From the IMG/VR virus record IMGVR_UViG_3300005286_000486, positions 1-35,331 of that record: a stretch of DNA of 35,331 bases, one strand, 5' to 3'. This stretch comes from a virus. Lineage: Duplodnaviria > Caudoviricetes. Both the position numbers and the translations under genes were made by a program. This document shows, in pieces, positions 507 to 34,427 of this stretch; the first letter of the stretch is position 1, and every line of letters begins with the position of its first letter. Under the pieces are notes generated by a model, which saw only the letters and a program-made list of their open reading frames with translations, was not told where the DNA came from and searched no databases.

Positions 507-802
507 TGGCGCACCTCGGACATGGAGGCGACGTGCATGCTGACGCGGGGGAGCGAGATGCGGGTGATGGCGAGGCCTCCCCATCTGCCGGCCGCCACCA
601 TGCGCCTGACGTAGATCTTACGCTCGTCGGCATCCGGGATCTGGCCGCCGGCGTCGAACGGCGCGGTGCGGCCGATCTCGCGCAGGCGCTGAACGATGCG
701 GAAGGTCGGCAGGTCGTAGAACTGCGCGATCTGGCGGATGCCATAGCCGCGATCGACAAGGCTCTCGATGTTGCCGGCGAGAATGGTGATCTGCTGGGTC
801 AC
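503..802 (-). CDS. Hypothetical phage protein, possible HTH
   Basis: Coupled by GTGA overlap to Gp37/Gp68; HTH-like segment GYGIRQIAQFYDLPTFRIVQRL. Confidence 0.7.
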   Translation of the reverse strand: MTQQITILAGNIESLVDRGYGIRQIAQFYDLPTFRIVQRLREIGRTAPFDAGGQIPDADERKIYVRRMVAAGRWGGLAITRISLPRVSMHVASMSEVRQ

Positions 803-1947
803 TGTGTAGTCTCCGGGAATGCGTTGTGTTCGATGCCGTCGAGGAGACGGCCGGCGCGGCGCTTGCCGACCTTCATCATCGTCATGGAGCGCTTGCCCTG
901 CTGGAATGCAGCCCGGTCGGTGATGCCGTGGCGCTGTGCGTCGTTATCCAGCACCGTCGTGTCGACGGTGCAGTGCCGGACGCCGTCTGGCATCCTGGCG
1001 GGCAGATAGAGGCTGTCGCAGAACTGGTCCGACATATGGTCTACCGGAAGCCACTCGCCCCACTGCTTGAACAGGAACGGCACGCCGGCCGACTCGCACT
1101 GGTCGCGCAGAGATCTTGCCCAGTCGGGATGCATGGGGCGGGCGCCGGGGCCGCTCTCGCCGCCGGCGACGACCCAGTCGAGGGTCGGCGCGGATTGCAT
1201 GTCGTGCTGCGTAAGCGCGCTATCGCAGACGACACTATCTCCTATGCGGCCGCCCGTGGGGATCATCGTCAGGTCCAGCGGCCCGAGCAACGGCTCGGCG
1301 CTGATCCATCGGATAGCGGCCGGGGTGTCGAGCAGGATCGGGATGCGATCGTCGGCGCGGCGCTGGTCCTCGACCGATACTCCGAGCCAGACATTGGGGA
1401 GCGGCCAGTTGCGCATTGTCACGTCATCGGGGAAATCGATGTCGCCTATTGATGCAACTGGCCACGATGCATTGATCGCCCTTGTCGCCGGCACTCGGTC
1501 CGGCGCACCTAAAAGATATCGGTCAATCATGAACCGGGCCAGCTTTCCGGCGCGTCCATTGAGGTATTCCCGCATCCGTTCCGGCCGCTTCGTCAGCACC
1601 TGAAACACGTGCTGCGGCGCCAGCGCCATGACGGCGAAGACCTGGTCCATCCACTCGTCCGGCACGCCTTCGGCGAACAGGTCGCCGTGGGCGCAGACGA
1701 AGATCCTGCGCGGGCGCTTCCATCTCAGCGGCTCCGACGGCCATTGCTCGTTGAAGCGAACCTTGCCGTTCCACACCGGACCGGCTTTCGTGTCGATCGT
1801 CAGCCCCGCGCGGCTCGGATGGTGCTTCAGCCGCGTGCCGGCGAGCCTCATCGCGTAGCAGTTGGTGCATCCGGGCGAGACGACGGAACAGCCGGTGACC
1901 GGGTTCCACGTGGCGTCGGTCCATTCGATCTTCGTGCCGTCAGCCAT
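799..1947 (-). CDS. Phage Gp37/Gp68 (DUF5131) family protein
   Basis: IEWTDATWNPVTGCSVVSPGCTNCYA, FQVLTKRPERM, NVWLGVSVEDQ, SAEPLLGP, WVVAGGESG and FLFKQWG motifs. Confidence 0.92.
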   Translation of the reverse strand: MADGTKIEWTDATWNPVTGCSVVSPGCTNCYAMRLAGTRLKHHPSRAGLTIDTKAGPVWNGKVRFNEQWPSEPLRWKRPRRIFVCAHGDLFAEGVPDEWMDQVFAVMALAPQHVFQVLTKRPERMREYLNGRAGKLARFMIDRYLLGAPDRVPATRAINASWPVASIGDIDFPDDVTMRNWPLPNVWLGVSVEDQRRADDRIPILLDTPAAIRWISAEPLLGPLDLTMIPTGGRIGDSVVCDSALTQHDMQSAPTLDWVVAGGESGPGARPMHPDWARSLRDQCESAGVPFLFKQWGEWLPVDHMSDQFCDSLYLPARMPDGVRHCTVDTTVLDNDAQRHGITDRAAFQQGKRSMTMMKVGKRRAGRLLDGIEHNAFPETTQ

Positions 1948-3171: not shown

Positions 3172-3363
3172 TCAGAGCGCGCGGGTGCTGGCGGCGGCGT
3201 AGCGGATCGACGCGGCCTCAATGACGGCGGGCGTGATCTCGGCACGAGCCACGCCCAGGCGGCGGGCGGCGAGTTCCTCGGTGCAGCCCTCGCCGCCGTT
3301 CTCCATCACAAGATTGGCGAGCTGGCGGGCAAGGCTGGTCTGGCGTGGGGTCAGGTCTGTCAT
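3172..3363 (-). CDS. Hypothetical protein, 63 aa, possible HTH
   Basis: AAAGGA RBS; operon-consistent orientation. Confidence 0.7.
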   Translation of the reverse strand: MTDLTPRQTSLARQLANLVMENGGEGCTEELAARRLGVARAEITPAVIEAASIRYAAASTRAL

Positions 3364-3396
3364 GGTCTATGGTCCTTTGTCTGGAGAGGGGAAAGG

Positions 3397-3418
3397 GACC
3401 CGCGCTTTCGCGCGGATC
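3397..3418 (-). promoter_or_regulatory. GC stem / GAAA-loop hairpin immediately after the Mtd-like stop; candidate DGR target-recognition hairpin
   Basis: Minus strand GATCCGCGC-GAAA-GCGCGGGTC; same position and loop as the BPP-1 mtd hairpin (recalled). Confidence 0.7.
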
Positions 3419-4310
3419 AGGCAGGAGTCAGGTGGTCGCAGGCGCCGCGGGCACCCAGGCTGTCGTTCGAGAGGCCCGGCCAGTCATCGAGGTACGCGCA
3501 CCGGGACCCGGCATCCGAGCCGCTGAGCCAGGAGCCGCCGAAGAGGGACGGACGCCGGAAATCCGGATCGCCGTCCGTGCCCCAGATCCACATGTTGCCG
3601 GTCGCCTGCATCAGGCCGATCCGGCTGGTGCGGGCGGGATCGAGAGCGGTGCGGACCGGATCCTCGTCAACGGACGACTTTTCCGTCACGCCGAAGGTGG
3701 CGACGCGGAATTCGTCGTAGGTCATCATGCGCTTGCCGTGGGCGGCGAGAATGTCGGTCGCTGACTTGAAATCCAGTAGCCGCAGCGAGCGACCATCGGC
3801 AATCTCTTCGCCAAAACGGCTGGTGCCGTGGTGCTGGTGACCGGTGTTCGTCAGGTAGATGTCGCACCAGAACGGCGCGACCGGGCTGTTGCCGTAGATC
3901 AGAACCATGCCGCGCGGATCCGCGCAGGCGGGGCGGAAGCCGATATCCCAGATCGAGAAGGGGTTGATGGCAGGAATGTCGTCGCCGCCGGCACGGGCCT
4001 CGGCATTGCCGCCGGGGGCGAAGTGGAAGCCGGCGAGATAGCCGGCGTCAAGCGGGTTGGTGTCGTCGGCGCGGACCAGCGACGGCTTTCCGCTGCGCGA
4101 GACCGCGACGGCATAATCGGTGCCCGCGACCAGGTTGCCGGTGTCGAGCGCCGTGTCGGTGCTGAACGTGACCGTATCGTCGTCGTTCTCGACGACGGTT
4201 CCGCGACGGATGACGATCTGCTCGCGGCCGATGGCCTTCAGGACGGGAAGGGTCGGCTCGGGCCGCCAGATGCGCGGCGCCTTGATCAGGGGGTCGGCGG
4301 TGTCGGTCAT
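3417..4310 (-). CDS. mtd: Major tropism determinant (Mtd)-like C-type-lectin-fold protein with C-terminal DGR variable region; lacks the Mtd N-terminal domain (297 aa)
   Basis: Collinear BPP-1 Mtd motifs: LVAGTDYAV, GFHFAPGGNA, INPFSIWDIGFRPACADPRGM, FWCDIYL, HGKR..YDEF...FG, GLMQATGNMWIWG, LFGGSW...GSR, GARGACDHL. AAGGAG RBS before ATG 4310. Confidence 0.9.
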   Translation of the reverse strand: MTDTADPLIKAPRIWRPEPTLPVLKAIGREQIVIRRGTVVENDDDTVTFSTDTALDTGNLVAGTDYAVAVSRSGKPSLVRADDTNPLDAGYLAGFHFAPGGNAEARAGGDDIPAINPFSIWDIGFRPACADPRGMVLIYGNSPVAPFWCDIYLTNTGHQHHGTSRFGEEIADGRSLRLLDFKSATDILAAHGKRMMTYDEFRVATFGVTEKSSVDEDPVRTALDPARTSRIGLMQATGNMWIWGTDGDPDFRRPSLFGGSWLSGSDAGSRCAYLDDWPGLSNDSLGARGACDHLTPA

Positions 4311-4492
4311 GAAGTTACGCTCCTTCAGCAGAGAGAGGGAAAGGGTTGTGGATGCCGGTGGAAAAGGACGATGCGATTGACGCGCGCGGGTGATCCTGAT
4401 GGGATGCAACCGTGAATAAGCGGCGCCGAGTCGTGTCCAACCACAACACGGCGCCTGTCATCCCCACGCGAACACACCACATGGAGACGATT

Positions 4493-4674: not shown

Positions 4675-5217
4675 ATGGACAATGACCGCGAGAACATTCG
4701 TTTCAACGCCCTGCGCAACGCGCTCTACCACACAGGTCGACGCCTGACGTTCGAGCGCTGGAACAGGTGGTGCAATTTCGCGGTCATTCTCCTTGGCGCA
4801 GCGGCGATGGCCGATTTCGCCAAGGGCGCGGGCTTCGGCGACCATCAGTATGTCCTCGGCGGACTGGTGGCGGCGGTCGGCGCCGCGCAGCTGGTGTTCG
4901 ATTTCGCCGGCCGGGCGCGGGACCATCAGGCCCTGCAGCGGGATTATTATCACCTGCTGGCCGACATCGAGGAGGCGGCCGCGCCGGATGAAAGCCTCGT
5001 TTCCCTGTGGCGCGGACGCATGATCCGCATCGCCGGCGATGAGCCGCCGACCTACCGGGCGCTGGACGCCAAGGCCTACAACGACGCGATCGGCGCGACC
5101 GAGATATTTCCCCTCACCGAACGGCTGCACATCCCGTGGCATCATCGCCTGTTCGGGGCATTCTGGGCCTTCGAGGGATACGACTACCGAAAGATCGGCG
5201 AACTGCCGGCGCGGTGA
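4675..5217 (+). CDS. SLATT-like two-TM membrane protein (180 aa), moron
   Basis: Amphipathic helix, two TM segments (FAVILLGAAAMA; VLGGLVAAVGAAQLVF), then the A..H......Y..L helix typical of SLATT domains; GAGGA RBS. Confidence 0.72.
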   Translation: MDNDRENIRFNALRNALYHTGRRLTFERWNRWCNFAVILLGAAAMADFAKGAGFGDHQYVLGGLVAAVGAAQLVFDFAGRARDHQALQRDYYHLLADIEEAAAPDESLVSLWRGRMIRIAGDEPPTYRALDAKAYNDAIGATEIFPLTERLHIPWHHRLFGAFWAFEGYDYRKIGELPAR

Positions 5218-5356: not shown

Positions 5357-5397
5357 AGGATATGCGCTTATGCATAAATGTCAATGCGTATGCGCAT
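5357..5397 (-). promoter_or_regulatory. pL promoter (TTGACA-16-TATCCT) with two operators
   Basis: -35 at 5384-5379, -10 at 5362-5357; ATGC-N6-GCAT palindromes at 5362-5375 and 5384-5397. Confidence 0.75.
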
Positions 5398-5459: not shown

Positions 5460-6134
5460 CTAAATGGTGAAGCGACCGATATATCTTCCGACGATATGGA
5501 TCTCGTCGATCGTGAGTTCGCGTTCTCGATGATGCGGATTGTCAGATGATATTCGCACCGTGATCGTTTCGTCGGACGGCTTCGATGTCACCTCAAGCCG
5601 TTTGAGAATCACTCCGCCGAACTCGTCGGCCACGGCATAAATGCCGGGCGGAGAGGGCACCCGGTGTCTTGTGTCGATGAAAACAACGTCGCCATCGCGA
5701 ATGGTCGGCGTCATCGAGTCGCCTTGCGTCCGAAACGCAGCGACGTGCCTGCTGGCGACGCCGAGGGTACTGAGCATCCAGTCAGGTATTCGCCAATGGT
5801 CGCGAACGACCTCCTTGGCGAAGGTGATCCCATTTGCGGAAGTCGCTTCGACGACCGCGAACCCGCCACCGCCCAGACCCGCGACCAGGTCGATTTCCGG
5901 AATGGATTTTAGGTCCGAGAGCGGCGCCTGGTGCACGTGGTCGGAGCCTATGACGCCGCGCTCCGCCGCAAGCTCGAACAGCGCGCCCATTGTGGAGAAT
6001 CCGGGTTCGGCGCCTTTCAGCCAGCGAGCGACTGTGGACTGATTGACGCCAAACTCGGCGGCAAGACTCTCTTGAGTGTAGCCCGCGTTGAGAAGGCCTC
6101 TTACGACCTCCGAGACTTCAGGTATCTTGCTCAT
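5460..6134 (-). CDS. cI: CI-like repressor (XRE HTH + S24 autopeptidase)
   Basis: HTH TQESLAAEFGVNQSTVARW; AG cleavage region VAGLGGG; catalytic GDSMTP Ser and ILKRL Lys. Confidence 0.95.
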   Translation of the reverse strand: MSKIPEVSEVVRGLLNAGYTQESLAAEFGVNQSTVARWLKGAEPGFSTMGALFELAAERGVIGSDHVHQAPLSDLKSIPEIDLVAGLGGGGFAVVEATSANGITFAKEVVRDHWRIPDWMLSTLGVASRHVAAFRTQGDSMTPTIRDGDVVFIDTRHRVPSPPGIYAVADEFGGVILKRLEVTSKPSDETITVRISSDNPHHRERELTIDEIHIVGRYIGRFTI

Positions 6135-6169: not shown

Positions 6170-6230
6170 ATGCGTGGACGCATTTGCGAGGGTTGCGTTT
6201 TTAGCCTAATGCGCATATGCTTATGCGCAT
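6170..6230 (+). promoter_or_regulatory. pR promoter (TTGCGT-17-TATGCT) with OR operators
   Basis: -35 6193-6198, -10 6216-6221; ATGCGTGGACGCAT 6170-6183 and ATGCTTATGCGCAT 6217-6230 match the pL operators. Confidence 0.75.
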
Positions 6231-6447
6231 GAACGCTGTCACCCACATCCGCAAGAACATACTCGGCGCCACTCAAGGCGAGATTGCCGCGATCGTTGGC
6301 GTCGGGCAGACGACCGTCTCGCGCTGGGAACGGGGTGAATTGAGCCCGGACCTTGATCAGATGCGGAGGCTGCGTAGCGAATTGCTGCGACGCGGGGTCG
6401 AGTGGGATGACGCGTGGTTTTTCGATGTCCCGGAGGCCGCCGAATGA
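6229..6447 (+). CDS. cro: Cro-like HTH regulator, probably leaderless
   Basis: HTH TQGEIAAIVGVGQTTVSRWE; divergent from cI; ATG 7 nt after the -10 box with no RBS. Confidence 0.88.
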   Translation: MNAVTHIRKNILGATQGEIAAIVGVGQTTVSRWERGELSPDLDQMRRLRSELLRRGVEWDDAWFFDVPEAAE

Positions 6448-7896: not shown

Positions 7897-8081
7897 GCAT
7901 GATGCCCGCCGCCCGCCACGACCAGACCGCGCGCCGGGAGCTGACGATCAGGCAAAGGCTGTCCTGGCGCATTCTCGAGCTTTTCCATGTCGAGGGCCGC
8001 AGCACCTTTGCGATCGCGGACGAGCTGTTTTTGACGGAAGCCGAGGTGTGCTCCGTGCTGAACGAGATGGAGCGGCGGTGA
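7893..8081 (+). CDS. Small HTH-like hypothetical protein (62 aa)
   Basis: ATGA coupling; [22 protein letters not shown]. Confidence 0.7.
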
Positions 8082-8416
8082 TGGTGGAAGAGTTCGATCC
8101 GATGGCTGTCTACGGTGGCGGCGCCGCCGCGAGCGAGCGGAAGAAGCGTGAGCCGGCGCAAGAGCAGCCGACACCGAACGTTGCGGCCGACCAGCTGCGC
8201 GCCTTCGTCGAGCGTATCGAGCACCTGGAGGAGGAGAAGAAGGAAATCGCCGACTTCATCAAGGATGTCTACGGGGAGGCGAAAGCCCTGGGCTTCGACA
8301 CCAAGACACTGAAGAAGGTGGTGAAGATCCGGAAGATGGGCGAGGCGAAGTGGCGCGAGGAAGAGACGATCCTCGACACCTATCTTGTCGCGCTCGGCAT
8401 GATCGGCGAGGGCTGA
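8081..8416 (+). CDS. gapR: GapR-like (DUF2312) nucleoid-associated protein
   Basis: [42 protein letters not shown]...[11 protein letters not shown] is the DUF2312 signature. Confidence 0.93.
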
Positions 8417-8417
8417 A

Positions 8418-9614
8418 ATGGAGGCCAGCCACCTGCCGCCTTTCCAGGTCATGCCGCCACCCAGCGCGGAGGACCGTTCCGCGCTGGAGGAGAGCATCAT
8501 CCGGCATGGCGTCCTGACCCCGGTCGAGTACGACGAGCAGGGCAACATCCTTGACGGCCACACCCGCGTCGAGATCTGCAAAAGCCTCGGGCTCGTCGAC
8601 TGGCCGCGCTTCGTGCGCAAGGGCCTGACGGACGCCGAGAAACGGACCTTTGCCCGCGAGGTCAACGTGGCCCGGCGCCACCTGACGGCGGCGCAAAAGC
8701 GGGAACTTGTCGAAGGGCAGCTGCGCGACACGCCGTCCATCTCCTCGCGCGCGATCGCCGCCATGCTCGGCGTCGACCACAAGACAGTGACCGCTGCACG
8801 CAAGCGGCTGGAGGATGGTGGGGAAATTCCCCACCATGACGAGCTGACGGGCAAGGATGGCGTGAGCCAGCCGGCGGCGAAGCCGATCAGGACCATGTTC
8901 CTGCCGGACAAGGCGAACGTCAAGGAGCTGAAGACGGTCGCCAAGGCTATCCGCGACCAGGAGCGCCAGACATCGCGTCTGGTGCGGGCGGATATCATCA
9001 ACGCCATTGCCGATCGCGGGACGCGGACGGCGGGCGAGATGCCGCGAGCAGCCTTTCCGATCATCTATGCCGATCCGCCCTGGGAGCAGGAAGCCTGGAG
9101 CGACGAGACCGGGCAGGACAAGGGGCTGAAATATCCGCCCATGCCGCTCGACGAGATCAAGGCTCTGTGCGCCGGGGAGAAAAGCCCGGCCACGCGGGAC
9201 GCGCTTCTGTTTCTGTGGGTGACGGCGAACCGGCTGGACGACGGCATCGATGTCTTGCGCTCCTGGGGCTTCGACTACGTCACCTGCCTTGTCTGGGACA
9301 AGGAAACGATCGGCATGGGGCGCTGGGTGCGCGACCGGCACGAAGTGTTGCTGATCGGCAAGCGCGGCGATTTTCCCGCGCCGTTGCCCGGCACGCAAAC
9401 TCCCTCGGTGCATGCTGAGCGCAAGGGCGCGCATAGCCGCAAGCCGGTCTGGTTCGCGGAAATGATCGAGCGGCTTTATCCCGACATGCGCAAGCTGGAG
9501 CTTTTCCAGCGCGCGGCCAGCCTGGCGGAAGGCGATATCCGCCGGAACGGAATGTGGGATTTCTGGGGGTTCGAGGCTGGAAGCGATGCGACGGGAGACG
9601 GTCATGAAGCCTGA
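8418..9614 (+). CDS. ParB-like N-terminal domain fused to MT-A70-family N6-adenine methyltransferase
   Basis: LEESIIRHGVLTPV...ILDGHTR (ParB-like), N..RRHLT plus HTH; IYADPPW, LFLWVT, HSRKP and LELF (MT-A70). Confidence 0.9.
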   Translation: MEASHLPPFQVMPPPSAEDRSALEESIIRHGVLTPVEYDEQGNILDGHTRVEICKSLGLVDWPRFVRKGLTDAEKRTFAREVNVARRHLTAAQKRELVEGQLRDTPSISSRAIAAMLGVDHKTVTAARKRLEDGGEIPHHDELTGKDGVSQPAAKPIRTMFLPDKANVKELKTVAKAIRDQERQTSRLVRADIINAIADRGTRTAGEMPRAAFPIIYADPPWEQEAWSDETGQDKGLKYPPMPLDEIKALCAGEKSPATRDALLFLWVTANRLDDGIDVLRSWGFDYVTCLVWDKETIGMGRWVRDRHEVLLIGKRGDFPAPLPGTQTPSVHAERKGAHSRKPVWFAEMIERLYPDMRKLELFQRAASLAEGDIRRNGMWDFWGFEAGSDATGDGHEA

Positions 9615-9900: not shown

Positions 9901-10184
9901 GACCCGGCGTCGATCGCGCGAAGCTCGCTTACCACGTCGCTGCCTTCCTCGACCGCGAGGGGCTTTCCTACCGGGATGCTGCGGTTCGGTTTCCGGGTCT
10001 GAACACGGCGATGCTCAGCCGGGTGAAACGGGGTGCGGTTCTGGCCGAGGGGAGCTTGCTCGCGGTCTGCGCGGCGATGGGCGTGAACCCACTCGACTAT
10101 CTCGTGTTCGTCGATCCTCGCCAGCAAAATCAAACTGTTACAGCAATTGATAAATGTGAAACGGAGGGCCATCCCTATGGCTGA
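9897..10184 (+). CDS. XRE-like HTH protein (95 aa)
   Basis: ATGA coupling; GLSYRDAA...LNTAMLSRVKRG...LLAVCAAMGVNPLDYL. Confidence 0.75.
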   Translation: MRPGVDRAKLAYHVAAFLDREGLSYRDAAVRFPGLNTAMLSRVKRGAVLAEGSLLAVCAAMGVNPLDYLVFVDPRQQNQTVTAIDKCETEGHPYG

Positions 10185-11304
10185 TGCATTCTCTGTGGTG
10201 ACCACTGCGGGGGACCTGACCCGCGTCCTGAGATCCGTCCAGCCGGGCGTTAAGCGTCGATACCGCACGAGCATTCCCGTGCTGACGATGGCCAAGTTTT
10301 CCGGAGGCCGCATAACGGTCACGGATCTCGATCTACAATTGTCCGCCGCGCTTCCCTCGCTGGAATTTCAGGGTGATGCGCTCGCGCCGTTCTGGACGCT
10401 ACTGCGGCTCGCCTCGGCCTTCGATGCGGACACGGAGATCAGGCTTTCCGGCGAGGAGAACCACGTCGTGTCGCTGCGCGCCGGTGGATCGAGCTATCGG
10501 CTCGCCGGCCTCGCTGTCTCGGAGTTTCCGGAGATGGCAATTCCTGCCGACATGGAAGAGATCAAGGCGGACGGCGGGGCGTTGCGCACCGCGCTGCGCT
10601 TCTGCCAGCCCTACGCCTCGCAGGAAGAGACACGATACTACCTGAACGGCGTCTGCCTGTTCGGCACGTCGATCGTCGCGACGGACGGACACCGCATGGC
10701 CATGGTGGACGACGTGCTGGAGGCCGCGCCTTCCGAGAAATTTATCATTCCCAACCGGGCGGTGAAGGCGTTGCTGACCATGGCCGATCCGCAGGTGTCG
10801 GTCGGAAAGCTGAGGCTCGTCGCCAAGTCCGCCGGCATGGAGCTGAAAGCCAAGCTGATCGACGGGACGTATCCGGACGTCATGCGCGTGGTGCCGCAGG
10901 ATGCGAACATGGAAACGTCGTTCGACCGGATGACGGCACTGCGGCTGCTGAAACGGCTGTCGGCGATCTCGAGCCGATCATTTCACGGCGCGGCGATCGC
11001 CGCAAAGAGCGGAAAGCTTGCCGTCGCGGCGCAGGGTGTCGATGACGGATTCGGATTGGAGGTTATGGATTGCGGCGGAACAGGATTCCAGCGTGCTTTC
11101 AACATCAACTACCTAACGCAAGTGTTGTCGTCGCTTGACGGTGACATCGTCCGTTTTCGCAATAACGGAGACCGAGGCGCTCCGATCATCGCCCAGGCCG
11201 ATGGCGGGATGCGACGCATCGTCCTGATGCCGATGAGATGCGAGGAGAAGACACTCGCGGCGGCCGCTGAAGCCATCGGGACGGACGAAAGGGCGGCGGC
11301 ATGA
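10177..11304 (+). CDS. dnaN: DNA polymerase III beta sliding clamp homologue
   Basis: IPVL, TDLDL, EETRYYLNGV, VATDGHRMA, KLIDGTYPD..RVVP, FN..YL and VLMPMR; 375 aa; GGAGG RBS. Confidence 0.92.
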   Translation: MADAFSVVTTAGDLTRVLRSVQPGVKRRYRTSIPVLTMAKFSGGRITVTDLDLQLSAALPSLEFQGDALAPFWTLLRLASAFDADTEIRLSGEENHVVSLRAGGSSYRLAGLAVSEFPEMAIPADMEEIKADGGALRTALRFCQPYASQEETRYYLNGVCLFGTSIVATDGHRMAMVDDVLEAAPSEKFIIPNRAVKALLTMADPQVSVGKLRLVAKSAGMELKAKLIDGTYPDVMRVVPQDANMETSFDRMTALRLLKRLSAISSRSFHGAAIAAKSGKLAVAAQGVDDGFGLEVMDCGGTGFQRAFNINYLTQVLSSLDGDIVRFRNNGDRGAPIIAQADGGMRRIVLMPMRCEEKTLAAAAEAIGTDERAAA

Positions 11305-11666: not shown

Positions 11667-13649
11667 ATGAACGCGAATTTCTCGCTCGACAACCGGATGA
11701 CGGTCGTTCTCTTCGCCGGGATGGGCGGCGGGTGCGACGGGCTGGAGCAGGCGGGCTTTCCGGTGCATCTGGCGATCAACCACGACCCGGTCGCCGTCGC
11801 CGTGCACAAGGCCCGGCATCCGCACACGCGGCACGAGCGCTGCGACGTTTTCGAGGTCTGCCCGAAAGAGGCGACGAGGGGGCGCGGCGTGCGCGTGCTG
11901 CACGCTTCGCCCGACTGCACCCACTTTTCCGTCGCCAAGGGCGGCAAGCCGGTCTCGCGCCGGCGGCGCTCGCTCGCCTGGGTGATCTGCCGCTGGGCGG
12001 GGCAGGTGGGGCCGGAGACGATCACTCTGGAGAACGTGCCGGAAATCCAGACATGGGGGCCGCTGGTCGCCAAGCGCTGCGCGAGGACCGGCCGCGTGAT
12101 GCGGCTGGACGGAACGGTGGCGGCCAAGGGCGAGCGAGTGCCGGTGCAGGAACAATGGCTCGTCCCCGATCCGCGCCACAAGGGCCGGATATGGAAAGCC
12201 TGGCTGAAGCACATGCGCCGGCTGGGCTACAATTTCGAGGGGCGCGTGCTGGTCTGCGCCGACTATGGCATCCCGACGATCCGCAAGCGGTTCTTCGGCA
12301 TTGCGCAGGCCGGCGGCGCGCCGATCGCCTGGCCGGAACGGACGCACGCGCCGCGCAAGGACGCCAAGCGGCTGGGGCTCAAGCCATGGGTCGGGGCGCA
12401 CACGATCATCGATTTCTCGCTGCCGGTGAAATCCATTTTCGGGCGGAAGAAGGACCTGGCGGAGGCGACGTTGAGGCGCACGGCTCGAGGCGTCATGCGC
12501 TATGTCGTTGAGGCGGCGAAACCGTTCATCGTGCCGATCACGCACAGCGGGGCGGATCGCGTGCATTCTGTCGACGACCCGTTGCGGACACTGACGACGG
12601 CGCACCGGGGCGAGATGGCGGTTGCGGTGCCCCATGTGGCCGTCATGCGCAATAGTGGAAAGCCCTATACCGCGGCAGATGAGCCTCTGCAGACGCTGAC
12701 GGCCGGAGGCGCGAACCCGGCTTTGGTTACCGCAGCCATGTCGCCCATGGTCATGGGCGTCGGCGGACGGGCGGCACAGACCGAGATTCGCGACCTCCGG
12801 GAGCCGATGGGCGCGGGGACGACGAAAGAGGACCGTGTCGTCATGGCGGCCAGCATGATCCGGACCGATCAGGCCAGCGCCGCCGGCCGGAACGGGGTTC
12901 ATGACCTTCTGGAGCCGGTGAACACCCAGCACACCGCGCCCTCCATGGCGTTAATGGCCGCGACGATATCACCTTTCATCGCTGATGTGGCTCACGGCGA
13001 GGGGCAGGGCCGCGGTGTTTCGGAATGGTCCATAGACGAACCGCTACGGGCTCTTCCGGCCAGCGGCGGAAAGTCGATGGTTGCCGCGTTTCTCGCGCAG
13101 CACTCCGCCGGCACTCATCCGGGGCAGCCTGCCCGCGATCTGGAGGAACCGCTTTCGACCGTCACGTCGACCGGTTCGCAGCAGGGCGTCGTCGCCGCCT
13201 CGATGCTGAACCTGCGCGGCACGGACAAGGCCGGACGGGACGTCCGCGATCCGCTCGCAGCGGTGAACGCCGGCGGAAACCATGCCGGGCTGATCCTCGG
13301 CTTCCTGCAGCACTATTACGGCACGGGCGGGCAGGACCAGTCGCTGGCCGATCCTCTCGGCGCGCTGACGGCCAAGGCGCGTCATGGGCTTGTGACGGTG
13401 AAGGTGGGCAAGGAGACCTACGTCATCACCGATATCGGCATGCGCATGCTGGAGCCGGAGGAGGGCGCGGCGGCGCACGGCTTCGCCAAGGGCGCTCTGC
13501 CCGACACGATCACCATCGACGGAAAGACGCGCAAGCTCACCAAGACCGAGAAATACCACCTGGTCGGCAACAGCGTGCCGCCGAGGATGGTGCGGCTGCT
13601 GGCCGAATGCAACGTGCGCCGCGAGCTGGCGATGGAGGCGGCAGAATGA
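11667..13649 (+). CDS. C5-cytosine DNA methyltransferase with expanded, repeat-containing variable region
   Basis: Motif I LFAGMGG, IV SPDCTHFS, VI LENV, VIII TIRKR, X GNSV; about 8 copies of (D/E)P(L/M/V)x(T/A). Confidence 0.93.
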   Translation: MNANFSLDNRMTVVLFAGMGGGCDGLEQAGFPVHLAINHDPVAVAVHKARHPHTRHERCDVFEVCPKEATRGRGVRVLHASPDCTHFSVAKGGKPVSRRRRSLAWVICRWAGQVGPETITLENVPEIQTWGPLVAKRCARTGRVMRLDGTVAAKGERVPVQEQWLVPDPRHKGRIWKAWLKHMRRLGYNFEGRVLVCADYGIPTIRKRFFGIAQAGGAPIAWPERTHAPRKDAKRLGLKPWVGAHTIIDFSLPVKSIFGRKKDLAEATLRRTARGVMRYVVEAAKPFIVPITHSGADRVHSVDDPLRTLTTAHRGEMAVAVPHVAVMRNSGKPYTAADEPLQTLTAGGANPALVTAAMSPMVMGVGGRAAQTEIRDLREPMGAGTTKEDRVVMAASMIRTDQASAAGRNGVHDLLEPVNTQHTAPSMALMAATISPFIADVAHGEGQGRGVSEWSIDEPLRALPASGGKSMVAAFLAQHSAGTHPGQPARDLEEPLSTVTSTGSQQGVVAASMLNLRGTDKAGRDVRDPLAAVNAGGNHAGLILGFLQHYYGTGGQDQSLADPLGALTAKARHGLVTVKVGKETYVITDIGMRMLEPEEGAAAHGFAKGALPDTITIDGKTRKLTKTEKYHLVGNSVPPRMVRLLAECNVRRELAMEAAE

Positions 13650-23442: not shown

Positions 23443-23768
23443 TGACTTTTGCCACTCTCGAAGAGACGAAGCAGGCCCTGCGCATCTATCACGATGACGA
23501 TGACAGCACACTCAACCTGCTCATCGGGGCGGCGACCGGCGCCGTGGCGAACTATCTCAAGTCCGCGGCTGATCCATACCTCGATAGCGGAGGTTCGGTC
23601 CCGAGCGGAGTGGATGTGCCGCCGGTTATCAAGACGGCGACCATCATGCTCGTTGGCTACCTCTACAAGAACCCGGACCAGGATCCGGACAAGGACTTTG
23701 AGCGGGGCTATCTCCCGGCTCCAGTAACGACGCTCCTCTATCCTTTGCGGGATCCGGCTCTGGCATGA
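23442..23768 (+). CDS. Head-tail connector/adaptor (HK97 gp6-like)
   Basis: TLEETKQALRI.HDDDD..L..LI.AA...V.NYL; IKTATIMLVGYLY.NPD; LLYPLR. Confidence 0.9.
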   Translation: MTFATLEETKQALRIYHDDDDSTLNLLIGAATGAVANYLKSAADPYLDSGGSVPSGVDVPPVIKTATIMLVGYLYKNPDQDPDKDFERGYLPAPVTTLLYPLRDPALA

Positions 23769-24406
23769 CTTCACAAGCTGTTTATCGGGACATTCCGGAT
23801 TGGTGGCCGGCGTGGAGCGGCGAGACGTGCGTGATCGTCGCCGGCGGACCATCGGCAAAGGACCATGATTTCGGGCTGCTCCGAAAGAGCGGTGTGAAGG
23901 TCATCGCCATCAACAATGCTCACGAGCTCGTTCCGTGGGCTGACATGCTCTTCGCGTGCGATTTGGCGTGGTGGAAACGTTACGGACCGGAGCTTCAGTT
24001 CAAGGGCCTCCGTCTCTCGACAGACAAGCACTCGTGCAGGGCCGGATGGGGCGTGCAGCAGGTCAACCTCGACCGGCCGAGCGATAGGCTGAACCTGACC
24101 CGCTACAACACGGTGGGATGGGGCGGGAACAGCGGCTTTCAGGCGCTGAACCTGGCTATCCAGTTCGGCTGCCACAAGATCATTCTGATCGGCTACGACA
24201 TGACGACCGTTCACGGATTGCACTGGCATGGCCGGCACCCGAACGGGATGAACAACCCGACCGAACAGAACGTGAAGCGCTGGCGTCGGGCGGTGGATGA
24301 TGCGGCAGATGATATCGAACGTTTGGGCATCGATGTTGTCAACTGCAGCCCTCTCTCGGCTCTGACGCGCTACCCGATTATGACGCTGGAAGAGGCGTTG
24401 GCGTGA
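23765..24406 (+). CDS. Maf/DUF115 (sialyltransferase/MptE-like fold) putative glycosyltransferase
   Basis: CVIVAGGPS, VIAINNA, GGNSGFQALNLAIQFGCHKIILIGYDM, VVNCS. Confidence 0.7.
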   Translation: MTSQAVYRDIPDWWPAWSGETCVIVAGGPSAKDHDFGLLRKSGVKVIAINNAHELVPWADMLFACDLAWWKRYGPELQFKGLRLSTDKHSCRAGWGVQQVNLDRPSDRLNLTRYNTVGWGGNSGFQALNLAIQFGCHKIILIGYDMTTVHGLHWHGRHPNGMNNPTEQNVKRWRRAVDDAADDIERLGIDVVNCSPLSALTRYPIMTLEEALA

Positions 24407-25020
24407 AGGTTTTCTCTGTCCTTCGCTCGGGTGGCGAATACAAGCCGGAGCACGTCGTCCGGCTCCAGCGGCAGGTGAAAGAGCATCTGAAGGATGCTGA
24501 CTTCTGGTGCCTGTCAGATGTCGAAATTCCCGGCGTCCAGACACTGCCGCTCAAGTTCGACTGGCCGGGCTGGTGGTCGAAGATGGAGATTTTCCGCCCG
24601 TCTATTCAGGGCTGGCTTCTCTATCTCGATCTCGATACTTCGGTGATCGGAGATCTGAGCGAAATCGCCTCGCTTGAGGGACTGACGATCATGCGGGACG
24701 CCTATCGCCACGATGGCCTTCAGTCATCGATCATGCTCCTGCCGGAGCACCTTCGGCATCAGGTCTGGCATCACTGGATCGACAGGCCTGATCACTGGAT
24801 GCAGATCTACCGCAAAGGCGGCGACCAGGCGTTCCTCGAGCGGTTCTGGCTCGATCGGGCGAACCGGTTCCAGGACGAGCTTCCGGGACAGGTCGTGTCC
24901 TACAAGGTCAACGTCCGCAAGGCGACCAGCAGACGAGAGTTCGGTGACGGGAATATCCCGGAAGGCGCGCGCGTGGTGTGCTTCCACGGTCTTCCGCGCC
25001 CATGGCACATAGGTTGGTGA
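24403..25020 (+). CDS. GT-A fold glycosyltransferase (GT8-like)
   Basis: WWSKMEIF, DxD motif YLDLD, SSIM, GGDQAFL, VVCFHG.PRPW. Confidence 0.8.
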   Translation: MKVFSVLRSGGEYKPEHVVRLQRQVKEHLKDADFWCLSDVEIPGVQTLPLKFDWPGWWSKMEIFRPSIQGWLLYLDLDTSVIGDLSEIASLEGLTIMRDAYRHDGLQSSIMLLPEHLRHQVWHHWIDRPDHWMQIYRKGGDQAFLERFWLDRANRFQDELPGQVVSYKVNVRKATSRREFGDGNIPEGARVVCFHGLPRPWHIGW

Positions 25021-25583
25021 TGACGACAATCGAGCAACGTGGTTCCGCCATAATCCGGCGCCTGCCGGCGAATGCGACAATGGCAGAGGTCGGGGTACTT
25101 CTCGGCGCCCTGTCCGAATATATCCTGCGTCAGCGCAAGGATGTCTCGGTGCTGATGATCGACAACTGGCAGACCACTGACAACCAGCCCGAGAGCTACA
25201 AGGCAACGGGTGACGACCATGCGCTGCACGCCGATGCGAAGCGCGTTCAGGCGCACCGCCAGCAGGCAGAGAACCGGGCGAGGCATTTTCCCGGCCGCGC
25301 CAAGATCATGGCGATGTCATCGGTTGAGGCGGCCGCCAAGGTACCTGATGCGTCGCTGGATCTGGTGTTCCTGGATGCCGACCACTCCTATGAGGGTGTC
25401 AAAGCTGATCTGGCCGCATGGCTCCCGAAGGTGAAGCCTGGCGGTTGGATCGGCGGGCATGACTACGACAATCCCGATCGGCGGTTCCGGTTCGGCGTTG
25501 CTCGGGCTGTCGACGAATGGGCGGCTGACACTGGCCGCGACATAGATCTCGACGAAAACTTTACCTGGTTCGCGAGGGTGTGA
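25020..25583 (+). CDS. Class I SAM-dependent methyltransferase (Methyltransf_24-like)
   Basis: AEVGV..G, IDNW, LDLVFLDADHSYEGVKADL..W.PKVKPGGWIGGHDY. Confidence 0.88.
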   Translation: MTTIEQRGSAIIRRLPANATMAEVGVLLGALSEYILRQRKDVSVLMIDNWQTTDNQPESYKATGDDHALHADAKRVQAHRQQAENRARHFPGRAKIMAMSSVEAAAKVPDASLDLVFLDADHSYEGVKADLAAWLPKVKPGGWIGGHDYDNPDRRFRFGVARAVDEWAADTGRDIDLDENFTWFARV

Positions 25584-31550: not shown

Positions 31551-31963
31551 CGGGTGCCGACGCGCTCGACGCCTTCCTCGCTCACTATGGCCCATTGCCA
31601 TGGTCGCCCGGATACAAGGTCGATTGCTGTCTCGCGCTCGCCGAATGGGCCATGTGGCTGGGGCATCCCGACCCGGCGTCTCACCTGCGTGGCACCTATG
31701 ACAGCGATGACGGATTCCGGGCCATTATCGCGGCTCATCAGGGCGTGTCGCCGCTGGTCGCGGGGTGTGTCGCCCAAATAGGCGGCGAGCCTGTGGAGCG
31801 CCCGTTGCGTGGCGATCTCGGGGTCATCGGAAGTTCAACCAACATACACAGACAGTTCGGTGCTCTCCACGACGGAGGCGGTTGGCTCGTGTGCACCGCG
31901 CGCGGCTTCGAACGAGTCTGTGCTCGAACACTTCGAATCTGGAGGATTGCATGCCGCAGCTAA
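31535..31963 (+). CDS. Tail assembly protein, NlpC/P60-like (DUF6950-type)
   Basis: PW..G..DCC..LAEW...GHPDPA..LRGTY, RGDLGV. Confidence 0.75.
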   Translation: MAQLVTGADALDAFLAHYGPLPWSPGYKVDCCLALAEWAMWLGHPDPASHLRGTYDSDDGFRAIIAAHQGVSPLVAGCVAQIGGEPVERPLRGDLGVIGSSTNIHRQFGALHDGGGWLVCTARGFERVCARTLRIWRIACRS

Positions 31964-32982
31964 TTGCCGGCCCTATCTTCTCCTTTCTGATCTCATCGAC
32001 TGCAATCGCGACGACGCTCGCCGGACCACTGGCAACGGCGCTCGGTTACGCGATTTTTGCGGGAGGCGCGTATCTTGCGAGTTCATTGCTGGCGCCAGAT
32101 CAGCCGAAGGTCCCGAAGCCGGAGGATGGCTCCTATAACCTCAAGCAGCCAATCCCATCGCTGCCGTACGTTCTGGGGCGGGTGAAAAAGGGCGGTGACT
32201 ATGTTTTCCTCGAGGAGACAGGCGGCACGGCATACCACATTCTCGTGTGGGCCGGTCATCGCATCGAGGGCTACGTCCGGCACTACCTGCACGACGAAAG
32301 AACGACGCTCGACAGCGACGGCTACGTCTCCAGCCCATCCCACTACACTGTAGGCACAGTCAAGCACGTGCGCATCCTGCAGCGCCTCGGCGCCAATGCG
32401 AGCACGGCCTATTCGCAGGTGTCGTCGGCCTTCCCTTCGAGTTTGGGGGAGTGCAGTACCGGGGTGATGGTTTGGCGAGCGTCTTGATGATGGTCAAGAC
32501 GGCCAGCCAAGAAAAACCACACGAAGGTCTTTCCCAACAACATGCCGGAGCATTCAGCTGTCGGCGATGGTGCGTGGCTTTATGACCCACGGAAGGATTC
32601 GACGCAGCCGGGCGGCTCCGGCTCGCATCGCTGGAATAACCCGAACACCTGGGAGTTTTCTCGCAACCTCGCCCTGATGCGCCTGTGGCACCTGTGCCAC
32701 CCCGTCGGCGGCAAGCTCTCCTATGCCGACATGTACATGCCGGACTGGATGCACGCCGCCGATGTCTGCGACGAGATCGTTGTCAATCGCAGCGGAGCGA
32801 ACGAGCGGCGGTATTGGGGCGGCTTCTGGTTTCGGGCGAACAACAACCCGGTTGAGGTGGCGCGCGTCATGGATGAAGCCGCCGAACTGGTGGTCTACGA
32901 GCGACCGGACGGCAAGATTGGTGTTCATGCCGGCGAGTTTGTCACGCCGGATATCACACTTAGACGTGGACGCATTGTCTAA
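31951..32982 (+). pseudogene. Central tail fibre / tip protein, split over three frames and truncated
   Basis: Frame 1 MPQLIAGP...AFPS; shift near 32440-32455 to YRGDGLASVLM; shift near 32515-32525 to KVFPNNMPEHSAV..LYDPRKDS; tail-like sequence ends near 32962. Confidence 0.75.
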
Positions 32983-33109
32983 CCCGAATGCGTAGCAAAA
33001 ATGTCCCGCCGTCGCATGACGGATGGATAGCGGCGCAGCTCTTCTTGACATCGATCGATATCGACCCGTAGACCAGAGCGATTGGTCTATCGGGGAGATA
33101 TAAGGGGCG

Positions 33110-34147
33110 ATGAACATATTCAGTCGGTTGTATAACAAGGCATTTCCAGCGCAGGCGAAATTCAGAGCATCGGTCCCCGAGATCATGACTTCCCTGAAGA
33201 AGATCCAGGATTACGGGTATCGAAACCGGAAGCTGATCGAAAACACTCTAGCCCTGATCGAGCGCCAGACCGTTTTCACCAACTACCTTTCTGCGGTCTC
33301 GATCATAAAGAACGAAGCGTCGTACATGCCGGAATGGCTCGAATACCACATCCTGATGGGTATCGAGAAATTCTACATCTACGACAACGATTCAACCGAC
33401 AATATCCGTGAAGTGCTGGAGCCATACATCGCCGCTGGCATTGTCGATTACATGCCGTGGTCGGGGAAGGCCCAGCAGGTCAACGTCTGCAACCATTGCC
33501 TCTCGAAATGCAAGCTGGACACCCGTTGGCTGCTGCATTTCGATATCGATGAGTTCATCGTTACGCAAACCGATGAGAACATCCCGGCCTATCTGAGGCG
33601 GATGGAGGAGCACCCGGCGATCCTGCTGACGTGGCTGGCGCATGGCACATCAGGGCACAAGACGCGCGTTCCCGGCCTCGTGATGGAGCGCTTCAAGGAT
33701 CACGTCGATTACGATCTTGCTAACTGGGTAGGGGCTCCCGGCGGCTGGACGAACTCGCAGGTGAAGCAGATCGTCAATCCTCGCCTTGTCGATCGGTTCG
33801 TTTCGCCCCACATGCAGCCGCTGCTCGGCTCTGCCGTGACGGTCAACAGCAAGGGGGAGGCGGTCCACGCCTTCAACCATGAGCCGGAAGGCCGAACGCT
33901 GGCGAACATTCACATCAACCACTACCCCCTGAAATCCGAGGAGGAGTTCTGGAACAAGCGGGGGAAGGGGCGCGGGACGAAGGTCATCGAAGACGAGAAG
34001 CAGCAAAAATACTACGACGACTATTTCAAGCGCCACAACCATAACGATGTGAAGAACGACCCGAGGATGGACAAGTTCATCCCGTTGGTGAAGCAGGCGA
34101 TAAAGGCCCGCTACAACGGGGCCGTCCCGGAAAACGTCGGGGTTTAG
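33110..34147 (+). CDS. Glycosyltransferase, GT92/GT2-like (moron)
   Basis: YLSAVSIIKNEASYMPEWLEYH..GIEKFYIYDNDSTD, WLLHFDIDEF, K.IVNP, INHY..KS.EEF..K..RG. Confidence 0.88.
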   Translation: MNIFSRLYNKAFPAQAKFRASVPEIMTSLKKIQDYGYRNRKLIENTLALIERQTVFTNYLSAVSIIKNEASYMPEWLEYHILMGIEKFYIYDNDSTDNIREVLEPYIAAGIVDYMPWSGKAQQVNVCNHCLSKCKLDTRWLLHFDIDEFIVTQTDENIPAYLRRMEEHPAILLTWLAHGTSGHKTRVPGLVMERFKDHVDYDLANWVGAPGGWTNSQVKQIVNPRLVDRFVSPHMQPLLGSAVTVNSKGEAVHAFNHEPEGRTLANIHINHYPLKSEEEFWNKRGKGRGTKVIEDEKQQKYYDDYFKRHNHNDVKNDPRMDKFIPLVKQAIKARYNGAVPENVGV

Positions 34148-34172
34148 GCGGGGATCTTCCCGCCATTTTTTT
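34147..34172 (+). terminator. Intrinsic terminator of the GT moron
   Basis: GGCGGGG-ATCT-TCCCGCC-ATTTTTTT. Confidence 0.8.
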
Positions 34173-34269
34173 GAAGCTCTACCATGGCGGCGAGGCATAT
34201 CGCCAAGGCAGGTGTCGCGGCCTGACAGTGAGGACCTTCCTCCAGCGCCGCGACCGAATGACCTTCGCC

Positions 34270-34427
34270 CCATTTACGGCTCCGGCTATATCGGGGATGA
34301 GGTGAAGCATATCATCACCACTGATCCCGCCGTGGCCGGCGCTATCGAGGCCGGTATCTCCGCGTTGATCGCCTCCGTTCCCGTTATGTGGTGGCGGCTG
34401 GCGAAACGTCTGGGGCTTCCGACGTGA
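34270..34427 (+). pseudogene. C-terminal part of a small holin-like membrane protein
   Basis: DPAVAGAIEAGISALIASVPVMWWRLAKRLGLPT resembles the end of small alphaproteobacterial phage holins; no credible N-terminal TM or start. Confidence 0.5.

Follow-up and report, generated by a model that had tools for sequence, protein, structure and literature searches.

The gene on the minus strand at positions 3417–4310 of the 35,331-nt viral stretch analysed here (the window) is a genuine DGR target: it carries a variable repeat (VR) and a DGR hairpin, and it varies at adenine sites between near-identical strains. It encodes a short Mtd-like protein and is placed in the early arm of a lambdoid prophage, and we propose, at a probability of roughly 0.55, that its product is an early, intracellular hypervariable binder. 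If this is true, targeted hypermutation extends from host range to intracellular phage–host conflict. What is new in this window is a lineage-variable Mtd copy without a cassette, to which are added counter-examples of Mtd targets that sit in virion modules and likewise have no beta-prism.

The plus strand across 3417–4310 is interrupted by stops, and the open reading frame is read on the minus strand from 4310 to 3417, giving a 297-aa protein with a beta-sandwich and a C-type lectin domain (phmmer, Pfam and fold model). Residues 27–294 align with residues 70–378 of Mtd from Bordetella phage BPP-1 (phmmer E 2.4e-44; PDB 1yu3) at about 35% identity and end in GARGACDHL, bearing out the first-pass annotation, which had described a 297-aa Mtd homologue extending to a final GARGxCDHL. 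The second domain of Mtd (PF21916) is recognized by Pfam at residues 24–122, with 30.8 bits versus a cut-off of 24.6. The N-terminal domain is missing, as had also been claimed: PF18454 (Mtd_N), which occupies residues 5–41 of BPP-1 Mtd, was absent in a Pfam scan of the 297-aa protein, and the target is 43 residues shorter than BPP-1 Mtd on the N-terminal side of the conserved G37 column. A fold model from a 113-row alignment (pLDDT 94), which supersedes one from a 33-row alignment (pLDDT 57), matches 1yu0 with a TM of 0.85 in Foldseek, so that the comparison with the Mtd structure suggested in the first-pass annotation came out positive, and the C-terminal CLec domain with the Mtd fold is present. 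The predicted homotrimer scored 0.24, the mark being 0.42, and is given no weight here. An alternative in-frame TTG start at 4409 would yield a 330-aa protein, but the ATG at 4310 is favoured because of an AAGGAG ribosome-binding site (4320–4325, minus strand) and the starts of homologues. The peak 15-residue hydropathy within the first 45 residues is 0.88.

The VR lies at approximately 3430–3550 (minus strand) and is recognized by comparison with related TRs and near-identical strains. With the majority of 21 distinct TRs of relatives taken as reference in place of the strain's own cognate TR, the changes fall on 12 of the 23 positions that are adenine in the TR and on 15 of the other 98. At the stop codon there is a GC-rich hairpin with a GAAA loop (3397–3418, minus strand; z −3.6), the DGR target-recognition element, which is likewise present in relatives and fits the GRNA loop consensus given for DGR target hairpins in the available part of PMC3240598. 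Near-identical target genes occur in contigs from two other studies (X4 and X5), at a depth of 3–4, which limits the weight of the comparison; the runs listed for this sequence include no RNA data set. X5 shows 0 differences over 3813–4350 (three contigs) versus 18 over 3318–3778 (one contig), and X4 shows 0 over 3939–4346 versus 7 over 3388–3576 (the contig that holds the VR). Among the VR differences listed by site, seven of nine coincide with a TR adenine, against a background of 23 such sites in 121 positions (P 2e-4), and the remaining two are silent third positions. X5 contains a second match of 119 nt with 12 differences, which we consider TR-like because its loose end bears a motif shared by 19 of 44 avd–RT spacers of relatives, and the downstream junction of the window is common to X4 and X5. 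The VR, the hairpin and the adenine-site variation together uphold the earlier assignment of the gene as a DGR target.

The window has a lambdoid gene order of CI, Cro, CII, methyltransferases, replication, a NusG-like antiterminator, terminase and head, with tail genes from 27294. A CI-type repressor (5460–6134, minus strand; phrog_4, E 9e-33) and a Cro-like regulator (6217–6447, plus strand) are accompanied by a predicted leftward pL with a sigma-70 consensus motif, TTGACA-16-TATCCT (5357–5384, minus strand). Leftward from this predicted promoter, the first gene in the same orientation is the target, which lies about 1.05 kb below in the left arm and is very probably transcribed from this site. 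The first-pass annotation had called it the first gene after pL, which is correct for co-oriented genes, but an antisense 180-aa gene (4675–5217, plus strand) lies in between, and this counts against the early-binder reading. The antisense gene has homologues in eight loci and, as a lead only, a SLATT-like two-TM fold; homologues occupy the equivalent position in L013, L029, L065, L075 and L079, and PADLOC gave no match for either this gene or the target. Four ATGCG-N5-GCAT palindromes, a pattern chosen post hoc, all flank CI, two of these putative operators overlapping pL (5362–5375 and 5384–5397, spanning 5362–5397) and two lying further on (6170–6183 and 6217–6230), and from them we infer that CI may repress pL, as described earlier; however, the motif is not enriched window-wide, its count being reached in 14 and 16 of 100 shuffles. 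The remoteness from tail genes noted earlier is confirmed, with the major tail gene 23 kb and the head–tail adaptor 19 kb from the target.

Early location is not peculiar to this copy. Among the best 119 of 735 homologues, 115 are no longer than 330 aa and the named members are mostly Rhizobiales. Three scans, with 12 long or virion loci left out, gave 91 short-form loci, 75 of them non-redundant. Gene calling and PHROG labels place an early marker no more than 4 kb away in 69 of the 75, the sites being either the interval between CI and integrase or that from cro/cII to the replication genes; six have no labelled marker, and in three a terminase gene or one labelled neck/minor-tail lies within 4 kb, where the late region begins. 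None of the annotated loci lies inside a tail module, and tail-class best matches were found for 2 of 90 further neighbours, both past the integrase. This scoring of homologue neighbourhoods as early or tail, proposed with the first-pass annotation, supports the view that the clade as a whole favours early sites and that the placement here is no accident. Both avd and RT are in the locus in 65 of the 75 and at least two targets in 40. Of the ten loci poor in cassette genes, four are truncated by a contig end no more than 100 bases away, another two contain distal targets, partial cassettes remain in two, and avd and RT are absent within 10 kb in the last two. An order-wide search matched 3 of 401 genomes, one of them the centre and another a long form, so the element is rare among representative genomes. 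Among the 14 records matched in another search, no isolated phage has the short form.

Several gene families recur around these elements. The right early arm of the window encodes a beta-clamp, a GapR-like protein and two DNA methyltransferases (10177–11304, 8081–8416, 8418–9614 and 11667–13649), families that also flank many related DGRs. A DUF5131 (Gp37/Gp68) gene at 799–1947 (minus strand) matches the PADLOC candidate models PDC-M41B and PDC-M30B, and such genes are frequent neighbours of short-form DGRs.

The relatives show the signature of DGR action. In 63 TR/VR pairs there are 780 mismatches at TR adenines versus 18 elsewhere, a count that includes redundant loci and some long forms and is made with a segment score favouring A-only matches; the RTs of relatives are 51–57% identical to bRT. 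Outside the VR, dN/dS values of 0.09–0.34 (13 pairs of relatives) indicate purifying selection on the scaffold. At AAC/AAT codons the resulting residues depart from expectation (Cys 6 versus 34 expected, Ile 5 versus 35), which mutational context could explain. Four of the best 119 homologues carry N-terminal fusions, to MazG-like, PF04447 (dATP/dGTP pyrophosphohydrolase) and nucleoside deoxyribosyltransferase domains, and one longer homologue is fused at its N-terminus to a weak ParB-like domain; independent fusions of the target to these four kinds of domain are those at L059:9533–10861, L061:9638–10846, P0021 and P0121. The enzyme domains favour a cytoplasmic product, although fusions of this kind are few (4 of 119) and loss of stop codons could account for them.

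The absence of the N-terminal domain is a poorer guide to location than it appears. Three Mtd targets within virion modules have N-termini as short as that of the target here: one lies between portal and capsid genes (L043), one after tail genes (L056) and one after the baseplate (phage YPCBV-1). Moreover, PF18454 was found only in BPP-1 among the nine long or virion-module forms scanned, the other eight being without it. The loss is thus not diagnostic of a non-virion role, the rule that a protein without the beta-prism is not on the virion is rejected, and the intracellular case is carried by position and fusions. The first-pass inference of a cytoplasmic product that is not an adhesin is accordingly favoured by the enzyme fusions of relatives, but weakened in that the missing N-domain does not by itself show it. 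A tree built by a quick method puts 11 long or virion rows and 117 short rows on opposite sides of a single long branch (support 100); being unrooted, it does not show which form descends from which. The short target of L030 has a long-type VR and adjoins the long clade, making it a possible evolutionary intermediate. No long, tail-type Mtd was found in the 17 records with a completeness of 90% or more, and a tail Mtd accompanies the short early target in 2 of 43 whole records (G023 and G042), both incomplete, with the tail-module Mtd genes cut by the contig end at or before the VR (L116:9932–11218 and L117:2–2017).

Searches of the 35-kb window for repeats, TR, RT and Avd were all negative. 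The window corresponds to an entire provirus record with a completeness of 58%, and its contig ends 3.4 kb downstream of the target. Extension of this left end by exact pattern gave 0 matches in viral contigs and, in metagenomes, a single contig (L104) that gains just 2 bases. Run X2, which may be the source sample, likewise had no second contig aligning to the VR at 80% identity; since contigs show presence and not absence, this does not prove loss of the TR. Directly downstream of the target, a spacer and ribosome-binding site (3364–3396, minus strand) resemble the spacer between targets 1 and 2 in eight relatives compared by eye, and are followed by an unrelated 63-aa ORF of no known family (3172–3363, minus strand) at the point corresponding to the start of target 2 in relatives with two targets. 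The protein also clusters with proteins that are mostly target 1 of a cassette with two (quick unrooted tree, support 98), and together these features suggest a rearrangement. Cassettes at various stages of decay occur among relatives, the TR being lost in L012, avd and most of the RT in L023, and RT and TR in L103, which retains two targets. However, non-adjacent DGR targets within prophages have already been described (PMC5758913), and in three relatives (G003, G035 and G046) distal targets lie 12–13.5 kb from the TR with adenine/other differences of 15/0, 12/0 and 5/0. A single TR serves targets 12–13.5 kb apart in L005/L007, L095/L109 and L052/L108, on opposite strands in two cases. With such distal targets in relatives and the contig end so near, the avd–TR–RT unit of this copy may equally well have been lost or lie beyond the contig end, the odds being about even.

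The prophage itself is in decay and looks defective. At 31951–32982 an interruption and a truncation affect the tail-tip gene (profile positions 13–172 and 202–349 of 873), no intact endolysin was called in the region 31951–34427, and because the tail-tip gene is broken this copy of the target may be a passenger. A family-92 glycosyltransferase gene follows the broken tail-tip gene (31951–34427). Sialyltransferase-like, glycosyltransferase and methyltransferase genes lie among the head–tail connector genes (23765–25583) and possibly serve glycosylation of the virion or the host surface.

We propose that induction of the prophage would express from pL a soluble Mtd-type binder, that mutagenic retrohoming from a TR of the same prophage would rewrite about a dozen of its surface residues, and that selection would retain variants binding a host protein that differs between hosts. 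The product is probably located away from the virion, and a defence or regulatory protein as its ligand, like the phage 'antibody' against host defence raised in the first-pass annotation, is a tentative suggestion. The product could instead be docked later on the tail or capsid through a separate adaptor and act as an accessory receptor binder of the virion. In lambdoid phages the structural genes are expressed late, which argues against such an adhesin, as do the position of short-form loci outside tail modules, the N-terminal enzyme fusions and the failure to find a conserved co-occurring adaptor gene among the neighbour clusters. In its favour are the fold and VR shared with Mtd and the three prism-less virion-module targets, each of which follows a small gene that is a candidate adaptor. 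In their accessible parts, published surveys assign targets of this kind to the tail proteins, and the free Mtd trimer binds weakly, with a micromolar Kd, the avidity of 12 trimers on the virion being needed (PMC2408619). A soluble binder would lack this avidity, which is a weakness of the intracellular reading and a point for the adhesin. On balance a virion adhesin seems rather unlikely, though it is the most likely of the rivals.

Early genes that block receptors are known in other phages, and the target, a lectin-fold surface binder without an export signal as judged by hydropathy, adjoins a membrane-type moron. It might be a soluble decoy that hides receptors or obstructs competing phages, either after release from lysed cells or from the inner side of the envelope. 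This seems improbable: nothing points to export of the target, co-diversification of the phage's own tail adhesin is not seen in the 17 complete records, and the enzyme fusions fit it poorly. More improbable still is a useless cassette hitch-hiking in the early arm, with this copy a relic in a decaying prophage. The absence of TR, Avd and RT from the window, the broken tail-tip gene and the degraded cassettes of L012, L023 and L103 would suit such a relic. Opposed to it are the purifying selection on the scaffold, the intact frame and hairpin, the retention of at least two targets in 40 of 75 loci and the skewed residues at AAC/AAT codons, although mutational context could cause that skew. Even with a functional clade, this one copy may be a relic. 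Beyond the single gene, it is a speculative possibility that the Mtd diversifier of the tail tip has been taken over by temperate phages of alphaproteobacteria for use inside the cell, as an adaptive 'antibody' made early. Its DGR-randomised lectin domains, in some cases joined to nucleotide-degrading enzymes, would attach to immune or regulatory proteins of the host and neutralise them, and cassette-less copies such as this one would be varied from a distant template.

Phage DGRs have been read almost wholly as host-range switches in tail proteins (PMC8144416, section 9; PMC5758913). In the available text of the latter (Wu et al. 2018), the category 'a' targets, those with an Mtd domain, are all treated as Mtd-sized tail proteins, and neither truncation nor early location is noted. 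One of the 11 'Mtd homolog' rows of its Table S1 (row 220) is an 894-nt alphaproteobacterial target from Bradyrhizobium sp. YR681 with structural phage homologues nearby given as none, and from this table entry the target probably belongs to the short-form clade. An early-operon Mtd layout is likewise not described in the accessible portions of Roux et al., Benler et al., Belalov et al. (PMC10053308) and PMC10907252; the literature search turned up no account of early-operon Mtd DGRs, and subscription literature and the supplements of PMC8144416 may list such targets. In multicellular bacteria, certain cytoplasmic DGR targets have been suggested to act as sensors of antigens (PMC10907252), and these, like the protein proposed here, have a CLec domain, are predicted to be cytoplasmic and belong to conflict systems. 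They differ in that their DGRs are cellular ones of clade 5 and stand on the side of the host, with NACHT-type fusions, and, as presented there, these targets are neither Mtd homologues nor phage-borne. The closest known system is the DGR of Bordetella phage BPP-1 (mtd–avd–TR–brt; PDB 1YU0–1YU4 and 2IOU), with which the target shares its fold, C-terminal VR and GRNA hairpin, and whose gene order is kept by relatives of the target. The beta-prism of Mtd is presumed to attach the protein to the fibre (PMC10743442). The target is without this Mtd_N domain and, contrary to the Mtd family, is encoded outside the virion module, and for these two reasons we class it as an Mtd-derived DGR target and not as a tail protein. 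Unlike BPP-1 Mtd, it also has shorter internal inserts, an early-arm site and no cassette in the window, and its clade, unlike BPP-1, often has two targets and includes some fusions to enzymes.
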